Virus record (IMG/VR): IMGVR_UViG_3300031616_000017
Span: 1-37,084 of that record
Strand: one strand, 5' to 3'
DNA: 37,084 nucleotides
Source: a virus
The position numbers and the translations under genes are program-made. A model generated the notes under the pieces. That model searched no databases and was not told where the DNA came from. It saw only the letters and a program-made list of their open reading frames with translations. Positions 19,765 to 37,084 of this stretch are shown here, piece after piece; the first letter of the stretch is position 1; every line of letters begins with the position of its first letter.

Positions 19765-19953
19765 TCAGGCGGCCTCTTTCTTTTCGGTGCCGCGCAAGAA
19801 AATATCTTGATGCTGAACTTTTACCGCCGCGGGGATGCCTCTCGACATCCAGTTGTGCACGCGCTGCACCCCGCCATCCTTGACGCTGTAGCCAAGAAGC
19901 CGAGCCACTTCAGCCGGCCCGCCTAGCGATTTAATAAGGGTTTTGTCATCCAT
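19765..19953 (-). CDS. Cro-like HTH repressor
   Basis: LIKSLGGPAEVARLLGYS...VHNWMSRGIPA is a Cro/YdaS-type HTH. The gene is divergent from the CI-type repressor. Confidence 0.7.
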   Translation of the reverse strand: MDDKTLIKSLGGPAEVARLLGYSVKDGGVQRVHNWMSRGIPAAVKVQHQDIFLRGTEKKEAA

Positions 19954-19960
19954 GAAAACA

Positions 19961-19990
19961 ATTCTAAACGACGTGTTTAGTTTTTGTCAA
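19961..19990 (-). promoter_or_regulatory. Sigma70-type promoter for the cro-like operon (TTGACA-18-TAGAAT), possibly producing a leaderless mRNA
   Basis: The minus strand reads TTGACAaaaactaaacacgtcgtt-TAGAAT-tgttttc-ATG, so only 7 nt separate the -10 from the ATG. Confidence 0.55.
19965..19979. promoter_or_regulatory. Operator TAAAC-N5-GTTTA (perfect dyad) inside the cro promoter spacer
   Basis: The plus strand reads cTAAACgacgtGTTTAg. The same dyad geometry recurs at 21090-21104 and, imperfectly, at 20002-20016. Confidence 0.6.
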
Positions 19991-20001
19991 CGCCACGTGA
20001 A

Positions 20002-20016
20002 TCAACGGAGTGTTTA
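20002..20016. promoter_or_regulatory. Imperfect operator TCAAC-N5-GTTTA overlapping the SD of the repressor gene
   Basis: The sequence is tcaacggagtgttta. It ends 1 nt before the ATG at 20018. Confidence 0.4.
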
Positions 20017-20017
20017 G

Positions 20018-20737
20018 ATGGCTACTATCAACCGCATGACACCAGATGCGAAACGATTACTTGACGCGGCGCGAGACCTCAAAAGATTAAAAAGTTACGC
20101 GGACATCGCACGACTCCTCGGCGAGTCCGACCAGACCATGACCAACTGGAAGCGCCGCGGCGTTCCCAAGGAAAAGACCGTTGAAATCTGCCAGAAGATC
20201 GGGTGCCGTCCAGAATGGCTAGAGACCGGCGAATCTCCGATGGTCGAAGAGAAGCGCCTATTACCTTCAGCCGATTTCAAAGTTTCTGAACAACGCGCAC
20301 ACTACACGCCACATAAAAACGTGGAGCCAGGCCCTGATATCAAGGGCCGGATTCCGCTAATTTCGGGGGTGAATGCGGGGATGTGGACAGTAGAAGTGGA
20401 TATTTACGAGCCAGGCTATGCCGAGCTCTGGCTCCCGATTCTGAAGGGAAACAGCGAGCATACGTTTGCGCTGCGTGTCGTCGGCGACTCGATGACTGCA
20501 CGCTTCGGGAAGAGCTACCCGGACGGGTGCATCATTCTTGTTGACCCCAGCAAGCGTGACCCGATCAATGGCGACCGAATTATTGCCAAATTAGCCGGCT
20601 GCGACGATGTCACGCTCAAGGTTTACACCGAGGAGGCTGGACGGCGATGGCTTAGGTCGCTTAACGATCATTACCCGCCTATCTACGATGAATTTACTGT
20701 CATCGGCAAGGTTATGTGGAAACTTGAGGAAGACTAG
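20018..20737 (+). CDS. CI-type repressor: N-terminal HTH plus C-terminal S24 (LexA-like) autopeptidase
   Basis: The HTH is YADIARLLGESDQTMTNWKRRGVP. The S24 motifs are VVGDSM and IIAKL...KV. 239 aa. Confidence 0.85.
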   Translation: MATINRMTPDAKRLLDAARDLKRLKSYADIARLLGESDQTMTNWKRRGVPKEKTVEICQKIGCRPEWLETGESPMVEEKRLLPSADFKVSEQRAHYTPHKNVEPGPDIKGRIPLISGVNAGMWTVEVDIYEPGYAELWLPILKGNSEHTFALRVVGDSMTARFGKSYPDGCIILVDPSKRDPINGDRIIAKLAGCDDVTLKVYTEEAGRRWLRSLNDHYPPIYDEFTVIGKVMWKLEED

Positions 20738-20739
20738 CC

Positions 20740-21006
20740 GTGGAATACCTGATGATCTGGCTCCTCTTCGGGTTCGCGGCCATGCTGATCGCCAACAGCA
20801 AAAGCCGTAGCGGCTGCGGATGGTTTATCCTGGGCCTGTTGCTCGGCCCATTCGCCCTCGTCGTCGCCGCACTGCCAACGGCACAGGACGACGCCCCGCT
20901 GAACAAAACGCACGCGCGGTGCCCGGACTGCAGAGAACTCGTTCTCATCGATGCCCGCAAATGCAAGCACTGCGGGTGCGCGCTGATCCCGCTTTCGGAG
21001 CAATAG
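20740..21006 (+). CDS. Two-TM membrane protein with a C-terminal CxxC...CxxC zinc ribbon (possible superinfection-exclusion moron)
   Basis: GTG start with SD GAGGAAG. The TM segments are LLFGFAAMLIA and WFILGLLLGPFALVVAAL. The zinc ribbon is CPDC...CKHC. It is co-oriented with the repressor and followed by a terminator. Confidence 0.65.
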   Translation: MEYLMIWLLFGFAAMLIANSKSRSGCGWFILGLLLGPFALVVAALPTAQDDAPLNKTHARCPDCRELVLIDARKCKHCGCALIPLSEQ

Positions 21007-21035: not shown

Positions 21036-21059
21036 GCCGCCGATCGGCGGTCTTTTTTT
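21036..21059 (+). terminator. Rho-independent terminator after the immunity operon
   Basis: The sequence is gccgccgatcggcggtcttttttt. Confidence 0.75.
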
Positions 21060-21079: not shown

Positions 21080-21108
21080 TTGACAACAATAAACATAGTG
21101 TTTAGTAT
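21080..21108 (+). promoter_or_regulatory. Sigma70-type promoter (TTGACA-17-TAGTAT) of the plus-strand early operon, with an embedded operator
   Basis: The sequence is ttgaca-acaataaacatagtgtt-tagtat. The operator TAAACatagtGTTTA (21090-21104) overlaps the spacer and the -10. Confidence 0.65.
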
Positions 21109-21138: not shown

Positions 21139-21324
21139 ATGCCCGCCATCACCGCCATCGAAAAAGCAGCCCTGACCGCCCGTTCGGCCGGCATGTTCTT
21201 CCTGCGCGACGCGGCCGGCTTTTCGCTTTATCGCCGGATCTCGCTGCGCCGCGTGTTTCTCGGCCGCGCCAGCACGCCCGATGCCCTGCGCCGGCTCGTC
21301 AGCCGCTGCGCGCGCTGCAAATAA
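21139..21324 (+). CDS. Hypothetical protein (61 aa)
   Basis: First ORF after the promoter, with SD CCGGAG. Confidence 0.5.
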   Translation: MPAITAIEKAALTARSAGMFFLRDAAGFSLYRRISLRRVFLGRASTPDALRRLVSRCARCK

Positions 21325-21334
21325 GGAGACCGAC

Positions 21335-21487
21335 ATGCACCACATCCCGCTCAACGTCGTTCGCACCGCCCTGCTCTACGCCAACACCCTCGCCCGCTTC
21401 CATCTCAGCGACCAGGCGCGCCCGGTGGCGCTGGCGCCCTGGTTGCGCAACCGCCTGAATCGCCGTTTCGCCATTTCGACTCATTAA
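21335..21487 (+). CDS. Hypothetical protein (50 aa)
   Basis: Strong SD AAGGAG 6 nt upstream of the ATG. Confidence 0.55.
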   Translation: MHHIPLNVVRTALLYANTLARFHLSDQARPVALAPWLRNRLNRRFAISTH

Positions 21488-21500
21488 CCGGAGACCGCCC

Positions 21501-22052
21501 ATGGCCGCCCGCCACATCCAGAACACCGCCAGCCAGGCGGTGCGCACCGCCACCGCCCTGCGCAACCTCGCCGAGCACAGCGGCATCGAGCGCGACGACT
21601 CGGCGCTGCTGCGCAAGAGCGCGCAGATCCTCGAATCTTTCGGCAAGATCAAGCGCGCCGAGGCCAAAAAAGCGAAACGCGCCGAAGTCGAGCGCGAAGC
21701 CTTCGTCATCAAAGCCACCAGCGTGGCCGCCGCCATGATCGACAATTGGCCACGCAACACGCTCGTCGAGCAGATCGCGCTGATTCGCACGCACTCGGAA
21801 TGGGGATTCGCTTCGCTGACCAGAGATGGCGGCCTTGACGCAGAGCACGGCATCAGATACCACCTCAAAGACGCCCTGCGCGACATCCCGAAAAGCCTCG
21901 CCTACCGGGCGCACAGCACCGGCAGGCCGATCGAAGAACTTATGGACGCTGCGCGAGGCGATTTCGACCGCTGGTGCAGCGCACTCCTCATCCGGAACAC
22001 TGCCGAGCAACTGCAGGCCAAAATCGACGCTCCCGCCAGGAGGGCCGCCTGA
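21501..22052 (+). CDS. Hypothetical protein (183 aa)
   Basis: Balanced composition, SD CCGGAGA, TGATG-coupled to the next ORF. Confidence 0.65.
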   Translation: MAARHIQNTASQAVRTATALRNLAEHSGIERDDSALLRKSAQILESFGKIKRAEAKKAKRAEVEREAFVIKATSVAAAMIDNWPRNTLVEQIALIRTHSEWGFASLTRDGGLDAEHGIRYHLKDALRDIPKSLAYRAHSTGRPIEELMDAARGDFDRWCSALLIRNTAEQLQAKIDAPARRAA

Positions 22053-22282
22053 TGCAAACCATCATCAACTTCCTGCGCCGCACGCTCGCGCTCTACGCCG
22101 TGCGCTGTCTCGAAATCGAACTGCACGACCAGACCACGGCCCTGCAGCACGTCGGCGACGCCGCCACGCAGCGCGCCATCAGCAGCGCCCGCGAGGCCAC
22201 GCAACGCGCCCTGCTCGCCGCCCGCCAGCGCTATATCGCCCGGCTCGCTCCCGGCCACTGCCCGACCTGGAGAACCGCATGA
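22052..22282 (+). CDS. Hypothetical protein (76 aa)
   Basis: Start is MQTIINFLRR with SD CAGGAGGG. Coupled on both sides. Confidence 0.55.
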   Translation: MQTIINFLRRTLALYAVRCLEIELHDQTTALQHVGDAATQRAISSAREATQRALLAARQRYIARLAPGHCPTWRTA

Positions 22283-22377
22283 ACACAATCGACGCCATCA
22301 TGCTCGCATGGCTCGGACTCTCGCCGATCATCGGCCTCATCGTCGGCCTCGCCGTGCGCGTCGGGAGCGGCGAATGA
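22279..22377 (+). CDS. Small single-TM peptide (32 aa)
   Basis: The sequence is MNTIDAIMLAWLGLSPIIGLIVGLAVRVGSGE. ATGA-coupled on both sides. Confidence 0.45.
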   Translation: MNTIDAIMLAWLGLSPIIGLIVGLAVRVGSGE

Positions 22378-22613
22378 ATACCCGGCCGAATGACCCCGTG
22401 CTGATCGGCATCAGCCTGCGCCCGGTCTGGATCCCCGGCCTGGAACGCGCCGTCGACCTGCTGCGCGAGCGCCACCCCGGCATGCCGGACGGCGAATTGC
22501 TTGAGCGCCTGATGGTCACCGGCATCTGCGGTGTGCTCGACTTCTACGCACCAACGGTCGAAGAGGCGCCATTCGGCCAGGTCGGGCAACAGGTTGTGGC
22601 GGTGATCGCATGA
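22374..22613 (+). CDS. Hypothetical protein (79 aa)
   Basis: ATGA-coupled on both sides. Confidence 0.5.
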   Translation: MNTRPNDPVLIGISLRPVWIPGLERAVDLLRERHPGMPDGELLERLMVTGICGVLDFYAPTVEEAPFGQVGQQVVAVIA

Positions 22614-23002
22614 TCACACACGCCCGCATCCTCGCCGACCGCCCGCAATCCGGCGTCAGCCTGGCGCGCCTCGTCTTCGACTATTTCGAGCCGACAGTGA
22701 TCGCCGCACCGAAACACACCAAAAACGTCCATCCGCTCGGTCATCCACCGAAAGATGAGCGGTTTTCGTGCAACCGCAACGGCACATCAGCAGCGATCAT
22801 CAAGGCAGCTGCTGACCGAATTGCTATTTACGGCCCGGTGATGCGCAAAAAAGGCTGGATGAATATCGCAAAAATCCATTCCGCCACGGGGATCTGCCCG
22901 GACTCCATCCGGCAACGGCTGAGGAAACTCGAAAGATCCGGGCATGTGAGTGCGCGCAAGGAACTTGACGGATCGGTATTTTTTCGGTGGATCGGAAAAT
23001 GA
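22610..23002 (+). CDS. Winged-helix DNA-binding protein (130 aa)
   Basis: The C-terminus IAKIHSATGICPDSIRQRLRKLERSGHVSARKE..GSVFFRW fits a MarR-like wHTH pattern. Confidence 0.55.
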   Translation: MITHARILADRPQSGVSLARLVFDYFEPTVIAAPKHTKNVHPLGHPPKDERFSCNRNGTSAAIIKAAADRIAIYGPVMRKKGWMNIAKIHSATGICPDSIRQRLRKLERSGHVSARKELDGSVFFRWIGK

Positions 23003-23166
23003 GCCGCGCATCCAACATCCACACCGCCAAGGTCTATCTGGCCCAGTCCCGGCACTTCACCGCCCGGGCGCGCGGCTTTTCTTTCGTGCTTCTCGGCTGG
23101 GCATCAAACGCACGGCGCCGCGCCGCAGCAGCAACCAATCAACCGCCGCAAATGAATCTGTTCTAA
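22999..23166 (+). CDS. Hypothetical small protein (55 aa)
   Basis: ATGA-coupled start, read by hand (below the track cutoff). The sequence is MSRASNIHTAKVYLAQSRHF.... Confidence 0.4.
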   Translation: MSRASNIHTAKVYLAQSRHFTARARGFSFVLLGWASNARRRAAAATNQPPQMNLF

Positions 23167-23185
23167 CCCCACCATGGAGACTCGC

Positions 23186-23797
23186 ATGAAATCCTCAATC
23201 GAAGAAATCACCGCCATCCTCGGCACCAGCATGGACGGCGGCTTCTATGCCGGTCGTATCTACGTCGGCGAGCAGCCGTTCGCCCTGATCGTCGCGCCAA
23301 AGACCGAAGGCGAGCACGACGAAACGAAGTGGATAGCCGAATACAAGGACGTACCCGGTTCCCTGTCCTACTTCGACGGTCTGGCCAACACGAAGGCAAT
23401 GGCCGAGGCCGGCAGCAAACTCGCCAAGTGGGCGCTTGATCTTCGCATCGGCGGCCTCGATGACTGGTATCTGCCGGCGCAGGACGAGATGGAGATCATC
23501 TACCGCAACCTGAAACCGACCGCCCAGCCGAACAGCTGCTACGCGCGCTCCGGCATCAACCTGTCGGCCATTACGCCAACGCGCCCATACACACCGGACT
23601 TCCCCTTGCAGACGCCGGCCGAGGCGTTCCGCGCCGGCGGCGAGCAGGCATTCGAGGCCGAGTGGTACTGGAGCTCAACGCAGCACGCCTCGGCCTCGGT
23701 CAACAGCTGGTATCAGGACTTCATCAACGGCTACCAGGACGACCACGGCAAGAGCGCCGAGCTCCGTGCCCGCGCCGTCCGCAGATTGCCAATTTAA
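23186..23797 (+). CDS. DUF1566 (Lcl C-terminal domain) protein, paralog 1
   Basis: Motifs DDWYLPAQDEMEIIYRN, YWSSTQ and AELRARAVRRL. SD GGAGA precedes ATG 23186. Confidence 0.7.
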   Translation: MKSSIEEITAILGTSMDGGFYAGRIYVGEQPFALIVAPKTEGEHDETKWIAEYKDVPGSLSYFDGLANTKAMAEAGSKLAKWALDLRIGGLDDWYLPAQDEMEIIYRNLKPTAQPNSCYARSGINLSAITPTRPYTPDFPLQTPAEAFRAGGEQAFEAEWYWSSTQHASASVNSWYQDFINGYQDDHGKSAELRARAVRRLPI

Positions 23798-23827
23798 CCA
23801 TTCATCAATTTTAAGGAGTCCTCCGAA

Positions 23828-24286
23828 ATGACCATCACCCTTGAAGCCATCAAGGCCGAGCAGACGAAGCTCGCCGAGATGATCGCCAGCATCGAAGCGG
23901 CCATGAAAGAACCACGTTTCTTCGAGTATCAGGGCGTCCGCATCCCGCTCGCGGAGGGCGAGCGTTACGTCGGCACAGTCATCAGCGCCGACGCTACCAA
24001 GCGCCACCACACCATCCTGCTGCCCGACGAGGTTGAGAATTCCAACTGGAAGAAGTCGATGGAATGGGCGGCCAGTATCGGCGGTGACCTTCCGGATCGC
24101 GTTGAACAGGCATTGCTATTCGCCACGATGAATGGCCAGTTTAAGGAAGCGGCCTACTGGTCCAACACGCAGCACGCCTCGGGCTCTATCGGCAGCTGGT
24201 GTCAGTACTTCGGCAACGGCACCCAGTACGGCCACTTCAAGAGCGCCGAGCTCCGTGCCCGCGCCGTCCGCCGTCTGGAGATTTAA
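23828..24286 (+). CDS. DUF1566 protein, paralog 2
   Basis: Motifs YWSNTQHASGS...KSAELRARAVRRL. It shares a 33-bp identical tract with paralog 1. Confidence 0.7.
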   Translation: MTITLEAIKAEQTKLAEMIASIEAAMKEPRFFEYQGVRIPLAEGERYVGTVISADATKRHHTILLPDEVENSNWKKSMEWAASIGGDLPDRVEQALLFATMNGQFKEAAYWSNTQHASGSIGSWCQYFGNGTQYGHFKSAELRARAVRRLEI

Positions 24287-24288
24287 CC

Positions 24289-24750
24289 GTGGCCACCAAG
24301 GAAACCATTCTGGCTAGAGTCGTGCGCGAGGGTGATTGCCTTGTGTGGACCGGTCACATCAATCGCAGTGGATACGGCTCGGTTTGGCACAACGGAAAGA
24401 ATCGCGACGTTCACCGGGTCTCGTACGAGCTTCATCACGGCCCGATTCCAGAAGGGATGCATGTCATGCATAAGTGCGACAACAGGCCGTGCATCAACCC
24501 GGAGCATTTAAGGACCGGGACGCGCCACGAAAACATGGTGGATATGTTTCTGAAGGATAGGCAGCGACCTCCGTTCGGAGTTAGCCATTACAACGCGAAA
24601 TTAACGGATGCAATCGCCATAGAAGTTCGTGCTCGATATAAGCCATATGACCGAAAGAATGGATCAATGGCGCTTTCTAGGGAATTCGGGGTATCTCAGG
24701 CGGCGATTCACACCCTGCTTAGAGGTGAGACATGGAAGCGTGCGGCATGA
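24289..24750 (+). CDS. HNH endonuclease (HNH_3 type)
   Basis: GTG start with SD GGAGA. Motifs CLVWTGHINRSGYG, HRVSYELHHGPIPEGMHVMHKCDNRPCINPEHL and GTRHENMVD. Confidence 0.8.
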   Translation: MATKETILARVVREGDCLVWTGHINRSGYGSVWHNGKNRDVHRVSYELHHGPIPEGMHVMHKCDNRPCINPEHLRTGTRHENMVDMFLKDRQRPPFGVSHYNAKLTDAIAIEVRARYKPYDRKNGSMALSREFGVSQAAIHTLLRGETWKRAA

Positions 24751-24848
24751 GCCACCACGACCGCGCCCAGTTGGCCAACGCGCTGCGCCGTCGCGGGCAT
24801 TCCATCAAGAGTGACCTTACCAAGACTTTCCGGAGGAAAGCAGCATGA
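24747..24848 (+). CDS. Small basic hypothetical protein (33 aa)
   Basis: ATGA-coupled on both sides. Read by hand. Confidence 0.35.
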   Translation: MSHHDRAQLANALRRRGHSIKSDLTKTFRRKAA

Positions 24849-25189
24849 TCCACCAACAACCAGCGCAGCCAGGTTCGTTCAAACACATGATCGGCAACCT
24901 GATCGGAGCCGCGCCGACATCGCCCAGCAACTCACAGCGCAATCGCGCAACGAACAATCCGGCGTGGCGGATCTCCTGCCAGATGAGCAATGTCGCATCG
25001 TTTTCCGTCAGCCGAGCGGCCATCGTCAAGGCGATCTCTGATAACGGGCCGCTTTCCCGGGTTGAGATTGTCGAGCTGGCCAGCGTCTCGATTTGCACGG
25101 CGGCCAAGCATCTCAAACTCATGAAGGCAACCGGCGAAATCAGGAATTTCGGCACTGAGACGCGGCCACGGTGGGGGTTGTGCGCATGA
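24845..25189 (+). CDS. Winged-helix DNA-binding protein (114 aa; N-terminal part low complexity)
   Basis: The C-terminus is AIVKAISDNGPLSRVEIVELASVSICTAAKHLKLMKATGEIRNFG. ATGA-coupled start. Confidence 0.5.
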   Translation: MIHQQPAQPGSFKHMIGNLIGAAPTSPSNSQRNRATNNPAWRISCQMSNVASFSVSRAAIVKAISDNGPLSRVEIVELASVSICTAAKHLKLMKATGEIRNFGTETRPRWGLCA

Positions 25190-25204
25190 CTATCTATCGC
25201 TGGC

Positions 25205-25417
25205 GTGAGCGGAGCCGCGGTTTGTGACCCTCAACCACCAGCGGGATTTACTCTTTGCGCTTGCATGGGGCCGATGTACGGGGAACCGCACTGCCTATGC
25301 AAAATGCAACAGCAAGGGCTGAAACTGAACGAAGAAGCCCGCGCCGACGATCACGCGAGAGCGAAAGATCAATGGGCGAAGTTCATGGAGCGCGGCGGTT
25401 TTGCTACGGAGAAATGA
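25205..25417 (+). CDS. Small CxC...CxC protein (start uncertain)
   Basis: The motif is CACMGPMYGEPHCLCKM. The stop is ATGA-coupled to the next gene. Confidence 0.45.
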   Translation: MSGAAVCDPQPPAGFTLCACMGPMYGEPHCLCKMQQQGLKLNEEARADDHARAKDQWAKFMERGGFATEK

Positions 25418-25656
25418 CTGTGCTGAATAAATACCAACGCTGGCTCAAAGCTGCGTTCATTTACTACTGGGGCCTCGGCGAAGACGCCGGGATGAGCGAC
25501 TACGAGTGGGACATGCTCTCGCGCAAGTTCTACGCCGAGCGCGACAAGATGACCCTGCCAGAGCACGCGCCACTGCACCGCGAGGAATTCACTGGTGGGA
25601 GCTTGTTCTGGCTGCCGAAGGATGAGTACCCGGCTTTTGTGCGCGCTAACGACTGA
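25414..25656 (+). CDS. Hypothetical protein (80 aa)
   Basis: Starts MTVLNKYQRWLKAAFIYYWG...MSDYEWDML. Its 3' end overlaps the outermost attC box. Confidence 0.55.
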   Translation: MTVLNKYQRWLKAAFIYYWGLGEDAGMSDYEWDMLSRKFYAERDKMTLPEHAPLHREEFTGGSLFWLPKDEYPAFVRAND

Positions 25657-25702
25657 GTTGTGGGGCGCCCGCAGGGCGTCCCGCACGAACGACGGGTTAG
25701 CC
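25644..25702 (-). other. attC-like site A (outermost)
   Basis: The plus strand reads CGCTAAC-gactg-agt/tgt/ggg/gcgccc-gca-gggcg[T]ccc[G]cac[G]aac-gacgg-GTTAGCC. All bulges are on the plus-strand 3' arm. Confidence 0.7.
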
Positions 25703-25743
25703 GGCTACCCGCTACGAAGCCCGGCAAAACTGGAGAAACACAG

Positions 25744-25914
25744 ATGACAACCACCGTAACCATTGCCGCCCACCTCTCGGCCGAAAAGGAAGTGCGCGTG
25801 AAACTGACCGACAACGGCAGCACGACCGAGGAATTCGCCTTGCAGGATGGCGAGAAAGCTGAGCGCTACGTCTATGACGGCCGCGAAATCAGCGTGCAGG
25901 AAGTGGTGAAGTAA
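25744..25914 (+). CDS. Cassette ORF, hypothetical (56 aa)
   Basis: SD TGGAGAA. The sequence starts MTTTVTIAAHLSAEKEVRVKL.... Confidence 0.5.
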   Translation: MTTTVTIAAHLSAEKEVRVKLTDNGSTTEEFALQDGEKAERYVYDGREISVQEVVK

Positions 25915-25916
25915 CC

Positions 25917-26081
25917 ATGCAGTCCTTTTGCTGGTGGTGCGGGAAGAAGCTGCAACTTCCGTTTTACACGGTGGTGATGGATCAACTCGGCCATCGGCAG
26001 AAGATTCACAAGTGCTGCAAGGCTGACGCAGAAAAAGAGATTCGCCCGGCGACGGCACAGCCCAAGCCGGCTAACGCTTGA
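25917..26081 (+). CDS. Cassette ORF, small zinc-finger-like protein (54 aa)
   Basis: The sequence is MQSFCWWCGKKL...HKCCKAD. Read by hand. Its stop lies just after the CTAAC box of site E. Confidence 0.45.
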   Translation: MQSFCWWCGKKLQLPFYTVVMDQLGHRQKIHKCCKADAEKEIRPATAQPKPANA

Positions 26082-26158
26082 GCTATCCGGCAGCGGCGCA
26101 CCGCGCTTGCTGCTACCAAAAGACTTATTACGCTGTCCGGTTGAGCGATTGGTTCGAC
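26069..26158 (-). other. attC-like site E (degenerate)
   Basis: GGCTAACGC ... tccggttgagcgattgGTTCGAC. The right arm is ~75% identical to that of site C, but the stem has a 3x3 internal loop. Confidence 0.45.
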
Positions 26159-26180
26159 GGATACAGAGAAAGGAAACAGC

Positions 26181-26435
26181 ATGGGAACGCTAGAAAGCAT
26201 AAAAGTGAAGCTCATCCAGCAGGGCTACAGCGGGTTGTATTGCGACGGAGAATGCGGATGCGTTGTTGATGATCTCGCGCCGTGCGGCGAATGCGAACAG
26301 GACGATGAAGGATGGATAAACCACTGCGAGCCGGGACACAAGCACATCGACCCGCGCAACGGAGAATTTATCATCAGTCCGCGCAGTACGCCGCCGACGC
26401 CGGAAGAATTCGATCGTGCGTTTGCAAACTGCTGA
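26181..26435 (+). CDS. Cassette ORF, Cys-rich hypothetical protein (84 aa)
   Basis: SD AAAGGAAAC. The motif is YCDGECGCVVDDLAPCGECE. Confidence 0.55.
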   Translation: MGTLESIKVKLIQQGYSGLYCDGECGCVVDDLAPCGECEQDDEGWINHCEPGHKHIDPRNGEFIISPRSTPPTPEEFDRAFANC

Positions 26436-26441
26436 CCTGAC

Positions 26442-26529
26442 GCCGAACGCAGAAATCAGCCCGCCGCGCGAGGCGGCAAACGAAACACCACAAGATTAAC
26501 CCGGTCGCGGCTGGATTGACGGGTTAGGC
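26442..26529 (-). other. attC-like site B
   Basis: GCCGAAC-gcaga-AATCAGCC ... GGCT[G]GATT-gacgg-GTTAGGC. It has 5-nt unpaired spacers, an extrahelical G on the plus 3' arm and a 47-nt variable centre. Confidence 0.7.
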
Positions 26530-26552
26530 ACTTTTGAAGAGAGGAAACAACG

Positions 26553-26873
26553 ATGAAACAGCAACAAACACTGATGCGGTTTGACCCGGCCACTGGCGAC
26601 AGTACCCCGTACCCGTCCCACGCAGCCCAATGGCGCGAGTTCAACGGAGAAATGGCATGGCTGTTCAACCCGTGGAATGGCGAGCGCCGCCATGCAGGCG
26701 ACGTTGGCAGCGACCGGTTCGGGCATTTAATTCTGCCACCAGGCGAACCGGTCTATGCCGAAGCGAAACCCGTGGCGTATTACGACCCGAAAGCGGAGAC
26801 GTTCATGTTCCCGCCGAAGGATGGCGCACGTCCGTTTGCGAAAGCATGGAAGCCGCTGTACGCAGGTGCCTAA
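26553..26873 (+). CDS. Cassette ORF, conserved-looking hypothetical protein (106 aa)
   Basis: SD AGAGGAAAC. The motif is WLFNPWNGERRHAGDVGSDRFGHLI. Its stop TAA lies inside the GCCTAAC box of site C. Confidence 0.6.
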   Translation: MKQQQTLMRFDPATGDSTPYPSHAAQWREFNGEMAWLFNPWNGERRHAGDVGSDRFGHLILPPGEPVYAEAKPVAYYDPKAETFMFPPKDGARPFAKAWKPLYAGA

Positions 26874-26924
26874 CGCACTAGCTCAGGGGCCGCGCAGCGG
26901 TCCCGCTGGAGCGATGGGTTAGCA
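26868..26924 (-). other. attC-like site C
   Basis: GCCTAAC-gcacta-gct/cag/ggg/ccgc-gca-gcgg[T]ccc[G]ctg[G]agc-gatgg-GTTAGCA. Confidence 0.75.
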
Positions 26925-26943
26925 GGCACTGGTAGAGGAAACC

Positions 26944-27696
26944 ATGAATTACGTAATTTCGGCGAGCTACGGGAACGACAGCATGGCGATGCTGAAATGG
27001 GCGCGCGAACACGGCCTGCAAGGCGTGACGGTGGCCTATTGCGATACCGGATGGGCTGCGCCCGGATGGGAAACGCGGGTTGCAGAAGGCGAAGCGCTGG
27101 CCGCGAGCCTTGGGTTTGAAACCGTTCAACTGGAAAGCATGGGCATGGAAGCGCTTGTGCGAATGAAAAAAGGCTTTCCCGGCAACGGACAGCAGTTCTG
27201 TACCGCGTGGCTGAAAGGCATCCCGTTTTTGCAATGGATCGACGAGGCCGACCCGGAGCGCGAAGCCGTTGTGATGATTGGCAAGCGCCGCGCTGAAAGC
27301 GAAGACCGGAAGGAAACGCCGGAATGGGTACAGAAAAGCGAGTACCACGGCGAGCGCAAGGTGTGGCACCCGCTGTACTTGCACAGCGAGCGCGAGCGCG
27401 ACGAACTGCTGATGCGGGCAGGCGTTGCGAAGTTGCCGCACAGAAGCGACGAATGTAGCCCTTGCGTGAATGCCAACAGATTGGATTTGCGCCGGCTGTC
27501 TGGTAGGCAGATTGGACGGACTGCCGCGCTTGAAACCGAAACGGGGCAGCCTATGTTCAGAGCCGCAAAGCACGGCGGGGCGAAAGGGATTGAGCAGGCA
27601 ATTCACTGGGCTAAATATTCGCCGGGCCAGTACAAGCCCGGAATGGATGACCTGTTTGAAGTTGGGTGCGGCTCACCGTTCGGGTGCGGACTGTGA
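26944..27696 (+). CDS. PAPS-reductase-family (PP-loop ATP pyrophosphatase) protein
   Basis: The PP-loop variant is SASYGNDS. Other motifs are KRRAES and the Cys motif ECSPC. 250 aa. Confidence 0.7.
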   Translation: MNYVISASYGNDSMAMLKWAREHGLQGVTVAYCDTGWAAPGWETRVAEGEALAASLGFETVQLESMGMEALVRMKKGFPGNGQQFCTAWLKGIPFLQWIDEADPEREAVVMIGKRRAESEDRKETPEWVQKSEYHGERKVWHPLYLHSERERDELLMRAGVAKLPHRSDECSPCVNANRLDLRRLSGRQIGRTAALETETGQPMFRAAKHGGAKGIEQAIHWAKYSPGQYKPGMDDLFEVGCGSPFGCGL

Positions 27697-27697
27697 C

Positions 27698-27787
27698 TGC
27701 TAACGCTGAAGTGAGGGGTGCCGCGCAATGAAAACAGAAGAGACAACCGCCGCTTGTTCGGCATCCCGCTCGACTGCCGGGTTAGGG
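27698..27787 (-). other. attC-like site D (large variable loop)
   Basis: TGCTAAC-gctga-agt/gag/ggg/tgcc-(37-nt loop)-ggca[T]ccc[G]ctc[G]act-gccgg-GTTAGGG. The lar ATG (27728) lies in the loop. Confidence 0.75.
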
Positions 27788-28051
27788 GCGGAAGAGTTTG
27801 AGGACAGTGTTTTTGACCCTTCTCCCTGCCCGTGCTGCGGAGACGATGCCGCGTTTTGTGTTGTTGATGATGACGGACTTATCGACGGCAGAGCAGGCGG
27901 CTGGTTTATTGAGTGCAACAACCCGATGTGCGGCATTACGACGCAACTTGTCTTTGCCACCGGAGACGACCCGCGAACCAGATTGCTTGAGGTTTGGAAC
28001 AAGCGAGCCCCTAACGGCGAAGTTCAGCGGCCTGCCGCGAAAGGAGAATGA
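27728..28051 (+). CDS. lar: Lar-family restriction alleviation protein
   Basis: Motifs CPCCGDDAAF...GWFIECNNPMCGITT...LEVWNKRA. There is no in-frame start downstream of attC D. Confidence 0.65.
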   Translation: MKTEETTAACSASRSTAGLGAEEFEDSVFDPSPCPCCGDDAAFCVVDDDGLIDGRAGGWFIECNNPMCGITTQLVFATGDDPRTRLLEVWNKRAPNGEVQRPAAKGE

Positions 28052-28052
28052 G

Positions 28053-28709
28053 ATGGGCAACAACGGTTGTTCGGCAGGTCCGCTGGAACGTGTTGTTATG
28101 CGCCTGGCCGCCCTGTTTGTGCAGCCGGACGGTTGCTACGCTGGCCTGCCAGGTGTTGATGCTTGGCCAGAGCATAGAGACGCGAGACTGTACCGTGGTC
28201 CGCTACCGGTGGTTGCGCACCCGCCTTGCCAGTTGTGGGGCGCCATGGCCGCAGTGAATTACGCGCAATGGGGCGGCGAGCACAACCGGCCTGGGAATGA
28301 CGGCGGATGCTTTGCCGCAGCCTTGGAAAGCGTGAGGCGGTTTGGCGGGGTATTGGAGCACCCGGCGAAAACGAAGGCGTGGAATGCGCACGGTCTGGCA
28401 ACCCCCGAAGCCATTGGCTGGCAACTGACCATCGATGGCGGATGGGTGTGCGAGGTGTGGCAAAGCGCCTACGGCCACAGGGCGAACAAAGCGACATGGC
28501 TCTACTACTGCGGAACGAACCCGCCTTTTGAACTGCGGTGGGAGAGGCCGGCAGGAACGCACCAAATTGGTTTTCACGACCAGCGGGGGAAGGCAGCGAA
28601 CAAGCCGACCCTTGGCAAGAGAGAGGCGAACGCCACGCCTTTGGAATTTCGAGACGAACTGCTGCGCCTGGCGATGATGGCGCATAACTTAAATTCAACG
28701 ACACCCTGA
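28053..28709 (+). CDS. C5-cytosine-methyltransferase-fold protein with a PCQ motif but no clear FxGxG SAM motif or target-recognition domain (218 aa)
   Basis: SD AAGGAG. Motifs HPPCQLWG (motif IV-like), VLEHP (ENV-like) and QSAYGHRANKATWLY (motif VIII-like). Confidence 0.45.
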   Translation: MGNNGCSAGPLERVVMRLAALFVQPDGCYAGLPGVDAWPEHRDARLYRGPLPVVAHPPCQLWGAMAAVNYAQWGGEHNRPGNDGGCFAAALESVRRFGGVLEHPAKTKAWNAHGLATPEAIGWQLTIDGGWVCEVWQSAYGHRANKATWLYYCGTNPPFELRWERPAGTHQIGFHDQRGKAANKPTLGKREANATPLEFRDELLRLAMMAHNLNSTTP

Positions 28710-28769
28710 CGTCGCGTTAACGCCTCGCCATGTCGCTTAATAAACCCACGAACCAACGGAGGCCGCATC
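28710..28769 (-). other. Candidate attI (crossover at GTTAAC 28716-28721)
   Basis: The box cgTTAACGC shares the xTAACGC consensus of all attC left boxes. It sits between the first cassette and the intI start. Confidence 0.4.
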
Positions 28770-29792
28770 ATGTATGAAACCGCAGAACAAAACGCGACAT
28801 CCTCGCTCGTGAAAAGCGACATGGCGCCAGCGAAGCCGCTCAAACTGCTCGACCAGGTGCGCAACCGCATCTGCGTCAAGCACTACAGCCGCAGCACAGA
28901 AAAGACCTACCTCTACTGGATCAGGTTTTATATTCATTTTCACCACATCAAGCACCCGCAAGAGATGGGCGCCGTCGAAGTCGAGGCATTCCTCTCGCAC
29001 CTGGCCACCGTCCGAGAAGTCGCCTCCGGAACGCAGAACCAGGCCATGCACGCCATCCTGTTTTTGTACAAGGAAGTGCTCGGCATCGAATTACCCTGGC
29101 TGAACAGCATCACCAAAGCCAAGCCATCGCAGCGCCTGCCGACCGTGCTCACGCAGTCCGAAGCGCAAGCCCTGCTCAAGCACACCAGCGGCCTGCCCGG
29201 CCTCGTTGTCCGCCTGCTCTACGGCACCGGGATGCGCCTCATGGAAGGCCTGCGCCTGCGCGTCAAGGACATTGACTTCGAGCGCCGGCAAATCACCATC
29301 CGCGCCGGCAAAGGCGATAAGGACCGCGTCACCATGCTTCCCGACTCGCTGATCGAACCGCTACAGGCCCGACTCGCTGATCGCCGCAAGATGCACGACA
29401 TCGACCTCGCGCGCGGCTACGCCGACGTCGAACTTCCGCACGCGCTCGAGCGCAAGTACAAAAACGCCGGCAAGGAATTCGGCTGGCAGTACGTGTTCGC
29501 CGCCGCCGACTACTCGACCGACCCGCGCACCGGCGTCATCCGCCGGCACCACATCCACGAAAAAACCATCCAGCGCCACGTCAAACAGGCCGCGAAGCGC
29601 GCCGGCATCATGAAACCGACGCACCCGCACACCCTGCGCCACAGCTTCGCCACGCATCTGCTGGAGGCCGGCTACGACATCCGCACCGTGCAGGAGCTGC
29701 TCGGCCATTCCGACGTATCGACCACGATGATTTATACCCACGTCCTCAACCGCGGCGGGCGCGGCGTCGTCAGCCCGCTGGATCGCAGCTGA
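28770..29792 (+). CDS. intI: Integron integrase (IntI-type tyrosine recombinase)
   Basis: SD GGAGG. The IntI-specific insertion is [40 protein letters not shown]. Catalytic motifs are [26 protein letters not shown] and [15 protein letters not shown]. From memory, roughly half the residues match IntI1. Confidence 0.9.
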
Positions 29793-29806
29793 TTTTCGGT
29801 GTCAAA

Positions 29807-30001
29807 ATGACCTACCTGCACAAAAAAGAACTGATCGCCCTAAGCAATGCCAAGCAGAAGCGCACCCTGCTCAACTGGCTCGCCGAGCTCGGTATCAAGC
29901 ACATCCCCGACGCAGACGGATGGCCCGTGGTAGCTGAATCGGCGATCCGTGCCAAACTGGGCGAATCGCCAAAACGCGAACCGAGGATCAACTTTGCGTA
30001 A
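29807..30001 (+). CDS. DUF4224-like small protein, probable excisionase/recombination directionality factor
   Basis: LHKKELIALSNAKQKRTLLNWLAELGIKHIPDADGWPVV fits the DUF4224 pattern. It lies directly upstream of int. Confidence 0.55.
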   Translation: MTYLHKKELIALSNAKQKRTLLNWLAELGIKHIPDADGWPVVAESAIRAKLGESPKREPRINFA

Positions 30002-30938
30002 ATTTCCGGCCCGCCTGCACGAAAAACACGGCGGCTACTACTACGTCCACAAGAACAAATGGCGCCTGCTGAGTCGCGACTACGGCGAGGCCTTGCGCCT
30101 GTATGCCGACCTGATCGCCCCGAAGCGCGCCGGCAGCGTGCCGGATCTGATTGATCGCGGCATCGAGCGCAAGGCGCTGGCCGCCAATACAAAAAAAGCC
30201 TACCGGATCGCGGCCGGAAAACTCAAGATCGCCTTCGAGGCATTCGACGCCGAAGATTTCCGGCCGACACATTTTTACCAATGGATTACCGCAAAGAAGA
30301 TCACCGGCAGCATGGCGCAGCTCTACCGCTCGGTGATGGTCGCAGCCATGGCGCTGGGGATCGAGGAAGGGTTGATCGACATCAATCCGATGCGCGAGGT
30401 GCGCCAGTGGCGCGGCGGCCAGCGCGACCGCTACCTGACCGATGCTGAATACATCGCCATCCGCGAAAAGGCCAATCCGGTGCTGCAGGCGATCATCACT
30501 ATTAGCCTGCAGACCGGCCAGCGCATCGGCGACGTGCTCAAAATCACCTACGCCGACATCTCAGACGCCGGACTCTACGTCCAGCAGGAAAAAACAGACG
30601 AGAAACTGCGCCTAGCCTGGACGCCCGACCTGCGCGAAGCGATCAAGCAAGCCAAGGCCGTGCACACCAGCCTCAAGGGCATGACCCTGTTCAGCACCCG
30701 GCAAGGGAAACCGCTGCCCTACAGCACCGTTCGCGGCTGGTGGCTGAAAGCCACGGCGCTGGCCGGCATCGAAAACGGCAACATGCACGACATCCGCGCC
30801 AAGGCCGCCACCGACGCCGACGAGCAGGGCCTCGACTCACAAGCCCTGCTCGGACATCGCAGCGAACAGACCCACCAGCGCTACCTTCGCGGCAAGAAAA
30901 TCAAGGTCGTTCAACCGCTGCCAATGGTAAAACCTTAG
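29949..30938 (+). CDS. int: Phage integrase (lambda-type tyrosine recombinase); the likely true start is TTG 29994
   Basis: Motifs GGYYYV, TGQRIGDVL, HDIRAKAATD and LLGHRSEQTHQRYLR. SD GAGGA lies 5 nt before the TTG at 29994. Confidence 0.85.
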   Translation: MPNWANRQNANRGSTLRKFPARLHEKHGGYYYVHKNKWRLLSRDYGEALRLYADLIAPKRAGSVPDLIDRGIERKALAANTKKAYRIAAGKLKIAFEAFDAEDFRPTHFYQWITAKKITGSMAQLYRSVMVAAMALGIEEGLIDINPMREVRQWRGGQRDRYLTDAEYIAIREKANPVLQAIITISLQTGQRIGDVLKITYADISDAGLYVQQEKTDEKLRLAWTPDLREAIKQAKAVHTSLKGMTLFSTRQGKPLPYSTVRGWWLKATALAGIENGNMHDIRAKAATDADEQGLDSQALLGHRSEQTHQRYLRGKKIKVVQPLPMVKP

Positions 30939-32181: not shown

Positions 32182-32441
32182 TGGATTTCCTTTTTGATCG
32201 AGCCGATCTTGCTGTAATAGGTGGTGCGCTCGGCGCCACGGAAGAAGAGCGGCGGGATCCAGCGCGGCCTTGGCGTGACCGGGACGTATTCCTTGCGCAC
32301 CAGCGTGCCGTCCCGCAGTTCGATGAAAACCGAGAAGTGCGGGAACCAGCCCCAGTGCGACTTGCGCACCACGAGATGGTCGGAGCACCGACCGTAGCGC
32401 CACATGCGCAGCGCGTAGGTCAGGCAGTTGTCGAGTTTCAC
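32178..32441 (-). CDS. Hypothetical protein in the lysis cassette (87 aa)
   Basis: Coupled on both sides. No TM segment or lipobox was seen. Confidence 0.5.
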   Translation of the reverse strand: MKLDNCLTYALRMWRYGRCSDHLVVRKSHWGWFPHFSVFIELRDGTLVRKEYVPVTPRPRWIPPLFFRGAERTTYYSKIGSIKKEIQ

Positions 32442-32758
32442 TTTTCCGCCTCACGAGAAAACCGGGACTCTGCCCAGGTTTCCATGTGATAGATCGCCCG
32501 GCTGCCCATGTGGCCGGAAATACCGACCAGCGCGGCGGTGATCAGGCCGCTGATCGCCGCTGATTCGCAGAGCAGGAAGGTCAGGATGCCGGCGAAGGCG
32601 CTGGTTACGATCTCGCCGACCAGCTCGGAGAAATTCCACGGCCGCGACTCGCCCGACTTCCGCTTGCGCAGAAAATTGACGATACCGCCCCAGCCGGAGA
32701 GGACGAGCACCCATCCGTAGGTGATCAGGCTGTAGGTTGTCGGGTCTTTTTCGGGCAT
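32438..32758 (-). CDS. Holin (multi-TM)
   Basis: Starts MPEKDPTTYS with SD GAGAGGAAAAA. The TM segments are LITYGWVLVLSGWGGIV, IVTSAFAGILTFLL and LITAALVGISGHMG. Confidence 0.65.
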   Translation of the reverse strand: MPEKDPTTYSLITYGWVLVLSGWGGIVNFLRKRKSGESRPWNFSELVGEIVTSAFAGILTFLLCESAAISGLITAALVGISGHMGSRAIYHMETWAESRFSREAEK

Positions 32759-32771
32759 TATTTTTCCTCTC

Positions 32772-33419
32772 TCAAACGTCAGCGGTAACACGCACGACGT
32801 TGGTGCCGTCGGCGTAAAGGATGGCGCGCTTTCCGGCCGCCACGACGATGCCGGTGCCGGTGGCGCCGATGAACTGCAGGCCGAATCCTCCCGTGGTGTT
32901 GTTGAACACCGTCCATTGCTGCGTCGGCAGCGGCACGACGATGTTGCGTTGCGCGGTCAGCGTGCCGGTGAATTGCAGGATATTGTTACGGGCCTCGGCA
33001 GCGGTCAGCGTGGTATTGGCATCGGTCATTGCCTTGGCGAGCAGGCCGGTGATCTGCGGGGCCTGCAGGCGATAGTCGGTGTAGCTGGTGATCGTGCTCG
33101 CGCCGGCGACGATCTGATAGAGCGGGATGCTGCCGGCGGTGAAGCCAGTGGTGTTTTTGCTCACCACGCCGGCGCGGGTTGTCTCGACGTAGTTGGTCAG
33201 AGACGCGGTCAGCGCCAGCGTACCGTTGGCGATTTGCGTGAGAACGCCGTCGACGCTGATCGTGCCGCCGTAGTAGCCCCAGGTCAGACCGGAGGTGGTC
33301 GATTGCCGGCGGCCGAAGGTAGTCGCCGGGCTGGCGGCGTCGAAGAAGGCGTTGGCGGTGACTTCTTTCCCAGCCTGCGCCTGGGTAATCGCGTCAAAAG
33401 TGGCGGTCGAGTTACTCAT
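32772..33419 (-). CDS. Tail fibre / receptor-binding candidate (DUF2793-like N-terminus)
   Basis: Starts MSNSTATFDAITQAQAGKEVTANAFFD with SD GAGGT. It lies directly after the J-like gene. Gly/Thr-rich. Confidence 0.45.
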   Translation of the reverse strand: MSNSTATFDAITQAQAGKEVTANAFFDAASPATTFGRRQSTTSGLTWGYYGGTISVDGVLTQIANGTLALTASLTNYVETTRAGVVSKNTTGFTAGSIPLYQIVAGASTITSYTDYRLQAPQITGLLAKAMTDANTTLTAAEARNNILQFTGTLTAQRNIVVPLPTQQWTVFNNTTGGFGLQFIGATGTGIVVAAGKRAILYADGTNVVRVTADV

Positions 33420-33421
33420 GA

Positions 33422-36400: not shown

Positions 36401-36622
36401 GACAGTGCCGTAGACGCGCGGGATGACGGCGCCATAGGTGCTGGTCTGGACGGAGAGGTCGGAGAGGCGCGGCCCCTCCATGTGCGGGCCTTTTGGGGGG
36501 TCGAGCAGGCCGCCGACGCCCATTCCAATCTGGGCGCCATAGAGCGCGCCAGACGGGCCGCCAATGAAGAAGCCGGCGACGGCACCAACAACGCCACCGA
36601 CAGCCTGACCGACGCTACTCAT
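33422..36622 (-). CDS. Host-specificity (J-like / RcGTA g15-like) tail tip protein with an inserted Asp-box (BNR) beta-propeller region
   Basis: Starts MSSVGQAVGG (ATG 36622), ATGA-coupled to the NlpC/P60 gene. The N-terminus is ...PRLSDLSVQTSTYGAVIPRVYG. Internal repeats follow the SxDxGxxW pattern. Confidence 0.85.
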   Translation of the reverse strand: MSSVGQAVGGVVGAVAGFFIGGPSGALYGAQIGMGVGGLLDPPKGPHMEGPRLSDLSVQTSTYGAVIPRVYGTVALYGNVFWLENNALKEVARTESQGGKGGPTSTTTTYSYFATFAVGLCEGPIVGVRRIWVGSKLIYDAGGSDYATIAASNAVSGLFTLHQGSDTQLPDDRMQATLGVANTPAYRGLAYLVLKDYPLADHGNSLAGAPIKVEVVVAGSSSISVTTVTVASQDPDYFIASNGQIVVSLGYNAAAGIGHLSNDGGASFVNIQMPAFSWNRIIWGKDKFIATGNSGGVTKTAYSFDGVAWFMGADLPFPSRSAIVWTGSIFVATGMSVTSTFTSFDGISWLTYSSAIALYQWLGLAWSGTTVCTVAFNGTVCSTSNDGALWATISMPPSVPGWQDVAYGNGIFMALGQTGQIATSIDDGVTWNLQTNSSTGGSNSSLAFGDGIWVVANGVRSKYSRDDGNTWTALSTVMGVVRYNGAWFNFAYTSRVGNVKFDLLASGTTSLSSIVQAELLASNLLDVGDINTSALTQTVRGYRVASVAAIRSALEPLQGAWPFDAVQSGYQIVFRLRGGSSVATIPAIDLDARGAGEKSGVSITNTREMDSVLPARVSIKYLDASREYDTGEQYAERLNTDAVNIRSIDMAIVMIGGESAATAEMLLYLYWLERYDLTFRLPPTYNQLEPADVITINATEAVYSLRLTAITYTQDGRLECTAKYNSAAIYAPAALGEEGQSTGGTLTLAGATRYELLDIPLLLDATDLPGFPVAMTGYLAGWPGGVLYRTDDEGQTWTDLQGFSAPGAVIGYASNSVGAGRTDLIDKASALAVVLTSGTLSSVTELAMLGGANHFAYGIDGRWEIIAAQNCTLQGDGSYVLTDLLRGRQGSEWACGLHVAGDKIVLLDSTRLAFVGSSLNSIGLLRTYRGITSGKALDSAADNDFAYTGVNLECLSPCYLNGNRHPTSNDWSLDWLRRTRVGGAWRDYVDATLGETTQSYEIDIFSSAAYTTVKRTLTGLSTPTAAYTSAQQVTDFGSNQATIYVKVYQLSANVGRGYPLTTSITR

Positions 36623-37032: not shown

Positions 37033-37084
37033 TGCGTACCTACCTGCGCATATTGCGAGCTGGTCGGCACATACGAAAAGCCAC
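36958..37084. repeat. Terminal overlap, identical to 1-127
   Basis: Direct comparison. Confidence 0.95.

Follow-up and report, generated by a model that had tools for sequence, protein, structure and literature searches.

The window analysed here, i.e., the entire 37,084-nucleotide (nt) stretch of the virus record IMGVR_UViG_3300031616_000017 from IMG/VR, contains an array of gene cassettes next to a gene for an integron integrase (intI). Very likely, this element is a phage integron in which intI, its attachment site (attI) and the cassette recombination sites (attC) keep their normal geometry, with the genes lying on the bottom strand behind attC and being read from an early promoter of the phage. 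In each unit, attC would precede its own gene, and the genes would be read toward attI and intI. The window is a complete temperate phage with the integron at the end of the early-left operon, just upstream of the excisionase (xis) and phage integrase (int) genes. An earlier note on this DNA had placed all credible cassette open reading frames (ORFs) on the plus strand; the family matches, an independent gene caller and the empty search with the minus-strand ORFs described below agree with it.

Six attC Sites on the Strand of intI

Folding and inspection by eye located six attC-like hairpins within 25644-28101. In each of them, the R boxes pair with one another (RYYYAAC ... GTTRRRY), 5-6 nt stay unpaired as a spacer, and an L stem carries a loop whose length ranges from 3 to ~35 nt. 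At all six sites, the bulges of one base each (a G, sometimes a middle base, and a T closest to the loop) protrude from the 3' arm of the plus strand, where the earlier note had seen the extrahelical bases. A scan for AAC...GTT hairpins with constrained folding gave the sites and the side of the bulges but was noisy, and it was superseded by a covariance model. This model, R1, was built from 39 short attC hairpins next to chromosomal intI genes in loci L030-L096, taken from related IntI loci that were drawn from genome and viral collections and each turned so that intI reads on the plus strand. The canonical branch of the IntI tree (see below) supplied 37 of the seed sites, and the other two (L030, L034) were later placed in the phage-type branch. 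In the seed alignment, 88.6% of the cells are paired, compared with 33-44% when the partners are slid, and 14 pairs have changed on both sides.

With filters off over the whole 37 kb, R1 returned exactly six sites, all on the plus strand, with 34.8-59 bits and E-values from 5e-6 to 1e-11. R1 matched no attC on the minus strand of the window, and the next best match anywhere had 11 bits.

attC A, 25644..25702, bottom strand on the plus strand: outermost site of the array; R1 59 bits, E 1e-11; extrahelical G, G and T on the 3' arm
attC B, 26069..26158, plus strand: R1 34.8 bits, E 5e-6
attC B', 26442..26529, plus strand: R1 37.9 bits, E 9e-7
attC C (the site C of the earlier note), 26868..26924, plus strand: R1 48.2 bits; fold z-score -2.97
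attC D, 27698..27787, plus strand: R1 55.8 bits; 31-nt loop insertion from 27727, with the Lar start codon 27728 in the variable loop
attC E, 28009..28101, plus strand: R1 45.9 bits; loop with the Lar stop codon, the ribosome-binding site (RBS) AAGGAG and the ATG at 28053

The class 1 integron AB571791, which has intI1 on the plus strand and dfrA12 and aadA2 on the minus strand, served as the control for the strand. R1 matches three sites in it, all on the plus strand, and the attC sites of aadA2 and dfrA12 stand at the 3' end of their minus-strand genes. A plus-strand match therefore means the bottom strand when intI is on the plus strand, and the six matches give the window the regular intI-to-attC geometry. 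R1 matches lie on the intI strand in 126 of 126 cases in L001-L029 and in 149 of 149 in L030-L107. The bottom strand of attC has its extrahelical bases on the arm opposite its 5'-AAC-3' triplet, with the G in L'' and the T furthest from it, separated by a 6-base-pair stem (Nivina et al., 2016; PMC5027507), and both the spacing and the side of G and T agree with the plus strand of the window sites. The earlier note had taken the plus strand as the attC bottom strand and had proposed a structure-aware model as the check; R1, the class 1 control and the published rule all lead to the same assignment. Its statement that intI is oriented as in a normal integron likewise holds in the window and in the relatives, where the matches are on the intI strand.

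Hairpins of this kind might also be terminators, REP-like repeats or fossils, in which case the array would be a static gene block of the phage, next to an integrase in decay. Two observations point that way: only two of the six sites fold better than shuffled sequence, the other four being no better, and an Rfam scan of the window matched no family. Fold energy alone is no useful attC criterion in the GC-rich DNA of the window. Against this explanation, R1 gives the sites 35-59 bits over a background of at most 11 bits, their architecture agrees with chromosomal attC almost base for base, and the chromosome-derived model scores phage sites with up to 70 bits. In addition, intI is full length with candidate catalytic motifs recognised by eye, cassettes are present or absent with AA/C joints in 99%-identical relatives (the slash marks the joint), and one related contig (L115) begins exactly at the attI junction. 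We thus regard the static gene block as very improbable.

Cassette Genes on the Plus Strand

The array contains seven ORFs in six cassettes, all on the plus strand.

Cassette 6, 25650..26074, plus strand: ORFs 25744-25914 and 25917-26081; bounded by the AA/C of sites A and B; codon score +33.9 vs 0.0
Cassette 5, 26075..26447, plus strand: ORF 26181-26435; plus-strand homologue just after attC in L028 (tblastn 8e-11)
Cassette 4, 26448..26873, plus strand: ORF 26553-26873; stop codon TAA shared with the next left box
Cassette 3, 26874..27703, plus strand: PAPS-reductase-family ORF 26944-27696; PF01507 1e-6, phrog_424 1e-24
Cassette 2, 27704..28014, plus strand: Lar-like ORF 27728-28051; phrog_599 4e-6, PF14354 3e-4, which is under its cutoff
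Cassette 1, adjoining attI, 28015..28687, plus strand: ORF 28053-28709; phrog_12600, 2.6e-68

An independent gene caller found the same seven plus-strand ORFs on the same sequence in a Logan assembly. RBSs and start codons follow the attC sites directly or lie inside them; the gap between attC and start codon is only 20-50 nt in most cassettes, and in two the start codon is inside attC. The ORF of cassette 4 has a 65% identical homologue on the plus strand directly after an attC in L014, whose DNA is too diverged to tell which attC travels with the gene. Cassette 1 has a 69% DNA match in Ralstonia phage PQ43W. Its 218-residue phrog_12600 protein is the largest family match of the window, of unknown function, and a PDB sequence search with it found nothing.

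Could the element instead be a captured bacterial integron, with its true genes on the minus strand under the cassette promoter Pc and the plus-strand ORFs as shadow frames in GC-rich DNA? Long minus-strand ORFs do exist at 26878-27606 (242 residues) and 28096-28704 (202 residues). Calls by the longest ORF alone, which give 106 minus against 3 plus in the control loci of lower GC content, are ambiguous in the window (two plus, one minus, three ambiguous). Shadow ORFs cause this ambiguity in phage loci, and a codon-usage score and PHROG scans were therefore added. Ten minus-strand ORFs of the cassette region gave no PHROG match, whereas three plus-strand ORFs match phage families, one of them at 2.6e-68. 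The well-placed RBSs and start codons as well as the choice of the independent gene caller also favour the plus strand. A simple consensus scan of 28600-29800 found no minus-strand promoter match near attI and intI, and among the relatives the plus-strand ORF set matches 70 families against one for the minus-strand set. The captured integron is already largely refuted, and we give it hardly any credence compared with a phage integron whose genes lie on the plus strand.

Three ORFs run over their cassette boundary, by 7 nt, by 37 nt (the Lar-like ORF, into the next cassette) and by 22 nt (the phrog_12600 ORF, into attI), and the cassettes are thus not fully self-contained as units. In the left R box and spacer (CTAAC-G-nTGA), stop codons are present in two frames, as seen at 25644-25656, 26069-26081 and 26868-26873, and upstream plus-strand ORFs end at the TAA of the left box or at the TGA just after it. 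Such box-supplied stops may explain why the overrunning ORFs end within a few codons.

A 30-nt stretch starting from the right box of attC A (GTTAGCCGGCTACCCGCTACGAAGCCCGGC, 25696-25725) is identical to L007:9539-9568. The attC interior and the ORF beside it in L007 are unrelated to those of the window, and no further copy occurs in the 107 loci. The stretch may be a shared 5' untranslated region, a regulatory module or a recombination scar.

The Mobile Unit

The boundaries of the mobile unit can be seen in two viral contigs, L001 and L002, whose flanks are 99% identical and whose arrays differ by an extra cassette at three places. All three joints coincide precisely with the left-box AAC on the plus strand, with the left part belonging to one site and the rest to the other. 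A joint at this position matches the bottom-strand cleavage point AA/C, and the three joints define the mobile unit on the plus strand as C, the rest of attC, a spacer with the RBS, the ORF with its stop codon, and RYYYAA. Two of the three additional cassettes carry clear plus-strand genes, encoding an Rv2179c-like exonuclease (1.3e-53) and a Mom-like protein. The earlier note had concluded that attC at the 5' end of a gene forms one mobile unit with it, and had argued from the lar start codon at 27728 inside the variable loop of attC D. That position is as described, although the joints in L001 and L002 are the best evidence for the unit. The closest IntI relatives yielded no array that shares cassettes with the window, most of their contigs ending within a few hundred bases upstream of intI.

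The same joints bear on the suggestion that canonical cassettes were inserted by top-strand recombination, which inverts the cassette. Top-strand recombination indeed gives insertion in the wrong orientation (Nivina et al., 2016; PMC5027507). It would, however, invert attC as well and bring the extrahelical bases to the 5' arm of the plus strand, whereas the canonical polarity relative to intI is kept at all six sites and at all 126 sites in L001-L029. The indel joints moreover lie at the left box, the point of bottom-strand cleavage. With this attC polarity and the left-box joints, the reversal cannot have originated from top-strand insertion, to which we assign practically no probability beside cassettes whose gene and attC have moved together in the reversed arrangement.

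intI and attI

intI, integron integrase, 28770..29792, plus strand: TIGR02249 473 bits vs cutoff 265, aligned over 1-314 of 315
attI region, 28688..28769, plus strand: conserved among relatives, C-TTAAATTCAACGACAC...ATGTCGC...GGAGG

The intI gene sits directly upstream of xis. In an alignment of 12 loci, conservation upstream of intI reaches as far as ...AAC/TTAAATTCAACGACAC, beyond which the sequences are unrelated. The candidate attI assigned by this homology places the junction between attI and cassette at 28687/28688 (GCGCATAA/C-TTAAATTC), 82 nt upstream of intI. The same junction occurs in seven further contigs (L110-L116), of which L115 begins there at AACTTAAATTC. GTTAAC at 28716, tried as the attI crossover, was ruled out by the 12-locus alignment. 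What characterises a complete integron was found here: the IntI-specific domain, attC sites recognised by a structure-aware model, an attI junction and, in the relatives, crossover at the conserved triplet.

Among close relatives (L110-L115), many assemblies break within ~220 nt upstream of intI. Cassette heterogeneity at the population level would produce such breaks near attI in an assembly graph.

Reversed Cassettes in the Phage-Type IntI Branch

We assigned a gene strand to R1-delimited cassettes from ORF length and a codon-usage score, a crude classifier, and compared the calls with a neighbour-joining IntI tree rooted at its midpoint.

Phage-type IntI branch (the window, most viral contigs, L028-L030, L033, L034): 73 plus, 16 minus and 18 ambiguous cassettes
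Canonical IntI branch: 4 plus, 127 minus and 21 ambiguous cassettes

The gene strand differs strongly between the two branches (73 plus and 16 minus vs 4 plus and 127 minus; Fisher p = 5e-37). Independently of the classifier, PHROG scans (E 1e-5 or better) of the longest ORF per cassette on each strand of the viral loci gave 70 families for the plus-strand set (82 ORFs) and one for the minus-strand set (81 ORFs). These comparisons confirm that the reversed layout is common to the whole phage-associated branch of integron integrases. When the IntI protein was searched, more than 100 clusters with at least 75% identity were obtained; the top 120 matches stem from metagenome assemblies throughout, those with a name are without exception metagenome-assembled genomes, and a cultured host was not among them.

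The surroundings of intI recur as well. In 18 related loci, the array lies inside a long plus-strand run that continues with intI and one or more plus-strand genes, and the strand usually switches thereafter where the contig extends further. Phage integrase homologues follow downstream of intI in seven relatives, and in called-gene tables of close relatives, intI is immediately followed by a DUF4224 gene and a phage integrase.

By PHROG match, the cargo of the relatives consists mostly of DNA methyltransferases, together with PAPS reductase, Mom-like proteins, DHH phosphoesterase and exonuclease; Pfam confirms C5 methylase, N6/N4 methylase, PAPS reductase and DHH/DHHA1 among these cassettes. 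Judging from such family hits, the array may be an exchangeable counter-defence module with a cargo mostly of DNA-modification and restriction-alleviation genes.

Several loci have further peculiarities. Downstream of intI, L028 has an attC (11294-11368, plus strand), a homologue of the window ORF 26181 (11386-11619) and an attI-like sequence (11628-11705). L005:11610-13431 similarly shows further plus-strand attC matches downstream of intI followed by a second attI-like copy, as in L028:11294-11705. These additional sites look like tandem arrays or a second platform minus its integrase. An identical IntI protein, 92% identical to that of the window, is found on contigs with two different sequences after int (L110, L111): a bacterial Glrx-like gene, a DegP-type protease, RseC and an ECF sigma factor in one context, and phage holin and tail genes in the other. 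The two contexts seem to represent one phage, integrated in the first case and circular in the second. L116, with an IntI 84% identical, bears a HicA/HicB toxin-antitoxin pair on the minus strand (3493-4091) inside its otherwise plus-strand early operon. In L020, viral according to IMG/VR, the attC sites are long and uniform, the cassettes are on the minus strand and IntI belongs to the canonical branch; a chromosomal integron has probably been mistaken for a provirus here. L024, also viral in IMG/VR, has minus-strand cassettes with an IntI in the phage-type branch and is an unexplained exception.

Proposed Expression From the Early Operon

cro-like DNA-binding gene, 19765..19953, minus strand: divergent from the repressor gene; phrog_8008, 3e-20
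Two operator-like palindromes TAAAC-N5-GTTTA, 19965-19979 and 20002-20016, no strand: cro/cI intergenic region, by pattern search
CI-type repressor, 20018..20737, plus strand: S24 (LexA/UmuD-like) autocleavage domain; phrog_4 1.5e-41, partial match to TIGR00498 lexA
Terminator-like hairpin and T run closing the repressor transcript, 21036..21059, plus strand: GCCGCCGATCGGCGGT then CTTTTTTTGC
pL-like early promoter TTGACA-17-TAGTAT, 21080..21108, plus strand: third operator palindrome (21090-21104) in its spacer
Run of early genes from promoter to array, 21139..25656, plus strand: includes two phrog_4245 paralogues and an HNH endonuclease
Excisionase (xis), 29807..30001, plus strand: phrog_8896, 1.3e-9
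Phage tyrosine integrase (int), 29949..30938, plus strand: phrog_1 5.8e-39, PF00589

By consensus scan, 21080-21108 is the only strong plus-strand promoter match upstream of the array, and the predicted genes from 21139 to 30938 are essentially all on the plus strand. The cassettes are hence co-oriented with this promoter, intI, xis and int, as the earlier note had noticed. Its proposal of an operator at the promoter is supported by the sequence: the spacer contains TAAACATAGTGTTTA, and the pattern TAAAC-N5-GTTTA, common to the promoter and the cro/cI region, is present in three copies in the window vs 0.2 expected by chance. No strong intrinsic terminator was found on the plus strand in a scan from the promoter to int, and no LexA box (CTGT-N8-ACAG, at most one mismatch) between 9.2 and 34.1 kb. 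Since a Pc in attI or intI would yield antisense RNA, we infer that the cassettes are read from the 21080 promoter.

A single repressor-controlled early-left transcript from 21080 would then span the cassettes, intI, xis and int. The cassette genes and the integrase might come on at infection, or at SOS-driven induction via self-cleavage of the S24 repressor, and new cassettes would be added where the array is furthest from the promoter, immediately before intI. At the level of inference, the expression model of the earlier note, which had been similar, is reasonable.

The same layout could be combined with internal promoters of the cassettes, or with their expression in the lysogen as morons. 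Antisense cassettes in chromosomal integrons usually carry their own promoters. Weak sigma-70-like matches lie on the plus strand inside the array at 26347 and 27530, and the 30-nt stretch common to attC A and the L007 cassette could be a regulatory module. The promoter matches are, however, at chance level (four found vs 3.4 expected), the short gaps between attC and start codon and the two starts inside attC leave little room for promoters, and the co-directional embedding in a long plus-strand operon recurs in 18 loci. We therefore consider cassette-borne promoters unlikely and prefer transcription from the early promoter.

Several points weigh against a phage integron of this kind in the window. 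Read-through from 21108 to intI, over ~7.7 kb, is an assumption; the plus strand has weak terminator-like sites at 24523, 25938 and 27836, and internal or non-sigma-70 promoters are possible. Cassette mobility is seen in relatives and not in the window phage itself, and exact-protein look-ups with two cassette proteins of the window found only the same sequence from another assembly. The 16 cassettes called minus in the phage-type branch may be classifier errors or genuine canonical cassettes. The C-termini encoded by the overrunning ORFs would change on relocation. As to the putative counter-defence cargo, it is read from family names only, and four of the seven window ORFs have no family match.

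The Phage Genome and Its Switch Region

An exact terminal repeat of 127 nt (1-127 = 36958-37084) indicates a circular assembly, i.e., a complete phage genome of ~36.96 kb, sampled accordingly in an excised or replicating form. By PHROG matches the phage has the repressor/cro switch, excisionase and integrase of a lambdoid temperate phage, together with structural genes; the latter are shared with the viral contigs L006 and L007, which match the window regions 8-1768 and 32236-37023. The translated repressor shows GDSM and AG motifs, and a minus-strand promoter (TTGACA-18-TAGAAT, 19990-19961) lies by the cro-like gene.

Between the repressor gene and the terminator at 21036, a gene for a small predicted membrane or zinc-ribbon protein (phrog_8436, 20740-21006) occupies the place that genes expressed in the lysogen, e.g., rexAB, have in lambda. 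Farther downstream, two adjacent paralogues (23174-23797 and 23828-24286) match the C-terminal part of phrog_4245, of unknown function, and are followed by the HNH endonuclease gene (24199-24750), all upstream of the array.

Implications

We tentatively suggest, with somewhat less than even confidence, that the phage-type branch is a distinct phage-borne integron lineage with attC before the gene, whose arrays are libraries of counter-defence genes, in which orientation separates the cassette pools and early transcription exposes the folding strand. If this is true, more than 100 IntI clusters (75% identity or above, from metagenomes) belong to a lineage read by the phage early operon together with intI, xis and int. 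They would carry exchangeable libraries of DNA methyltransferases, Mom-like and PAPS-reductase-type enzymes, Lar, and nucleases or phosphoesterases, and would thereby be a mirror image of the cassettes for anti-phage defence in bacterial integrons. Although phage and bacterial cassette pools have attC types in common, the orientation of the genes would keep the two functionally apart. The coding strand coincides with the recombinogenic bottom strand; early transcription would therefore lay open the folding strand and couple cassette shuffling to infection or induction.

The integron model holds that promoterless genes are inserted in one orientation for expression from Pc, guaranteed by the strand selectivity of attC. 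This central assumption is broken where the same machinery and attC polarity serve genes on the other strand across an IntI branch. The orientation of gene to attC then appears as an evolvable property of the cassette pool and not as a fixed one. Typologies and tools that record only intI relative to attC would class such elements as regular and overlook the reversal. Phages would gain a modular gene-exchange system of their own, whose cargo resembles anti-restriction and DNA-modification functions and would be a phage counterpart to the defence cassettes recently described in bacterial integrons. The layout also raises the ideas that a phage repressor acts on the integrase instead of LexA, that the newest cassettes are furthest from the promoter, and that transcription exposes the recombinogenic strand.

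Comparison With Known Systems

The recombination system of the window is that of regular integrons, both class 1 and the chromosomal ones of Beta- and Gammaproteobacteria. Its IntI has the integron-specific insertion (TIGR02249), its attC sites have R boxes, a central spacer, extrahelical G and T at a distance of six base pairs and a variable loop, attI lies directly at the 5' end of intI, intI is opposite to the attC top strand, and crossover is at AA/C on the bottom strand. Unlike in regular integrons, all seven ORFs of the window are on the bottom strand, preceded by attC and directed toward attI; control integrons have the canonical gene strand in 127 of 131 callable cassettes. Pc cannot serve the window genes, a LexA box, which is common though not universal at intI promoters of regular integrons, was not found, and the platform is in a phage operon by xis and int.

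Antisense cassettes of large chromosomal integrons, e.g., those with toxin-antitoxin genes, also have their ORF opposite to the direction of Pc. They are a minority with their own promoters in canonical arrays, whereas here the whole array and the whole IntI branch are reversed, inside a co-directional operon.

The order of gene and then attC is canonical in the Treponema denticola group, with genes read away from attI. These inverted-integrase integrons have intI on the same strand as the attC sites (PMC4889954; PMC13323075). The window shares with them the co-directionality of integrase gene and cassette genes. It differs in having the attC top strand on the minus strand and intI on the plus strand, so that the relation of intI to attC is regular and that of gene to attC is reversed.

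Only three complete integrons in temperate phages are reported by Qi et al. (2023; PMC9892861), who do not discuss the gene strand. One is in a Shewanella prophage, whose IntI shares 95% identity with the one on the S. oneidensis MR-1 chromosome; the other two are presented under headings on Vibrio chromosomal integron fragments and on a class 1 mosaic carried by a P1 phage. Like the window, these phages combine intI, attI and attC in a temperate phage genome, whereas a dedicated phage lineage or a gene-strand reversal is not described there. Searches of a full-text literature library gave no description of a phage integron with reversed genes, an absence that is not proof.

Operons of the lambda pL type have a divergent repressor/cro pair, a repressor-controlled promoter and a long operon ending in xis-int. 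The window likewise appears to have a repressor-controlled operon running to xis-int, and its integrase is predicted to be damage-induced, as in LexA-controlled intI. The SOS input would here come through cleavage of the phage repressor rather than through LexA control of intI, and the accessory region of the operon would be an integron array in place of the fixed genes of lambda-type pL operons.

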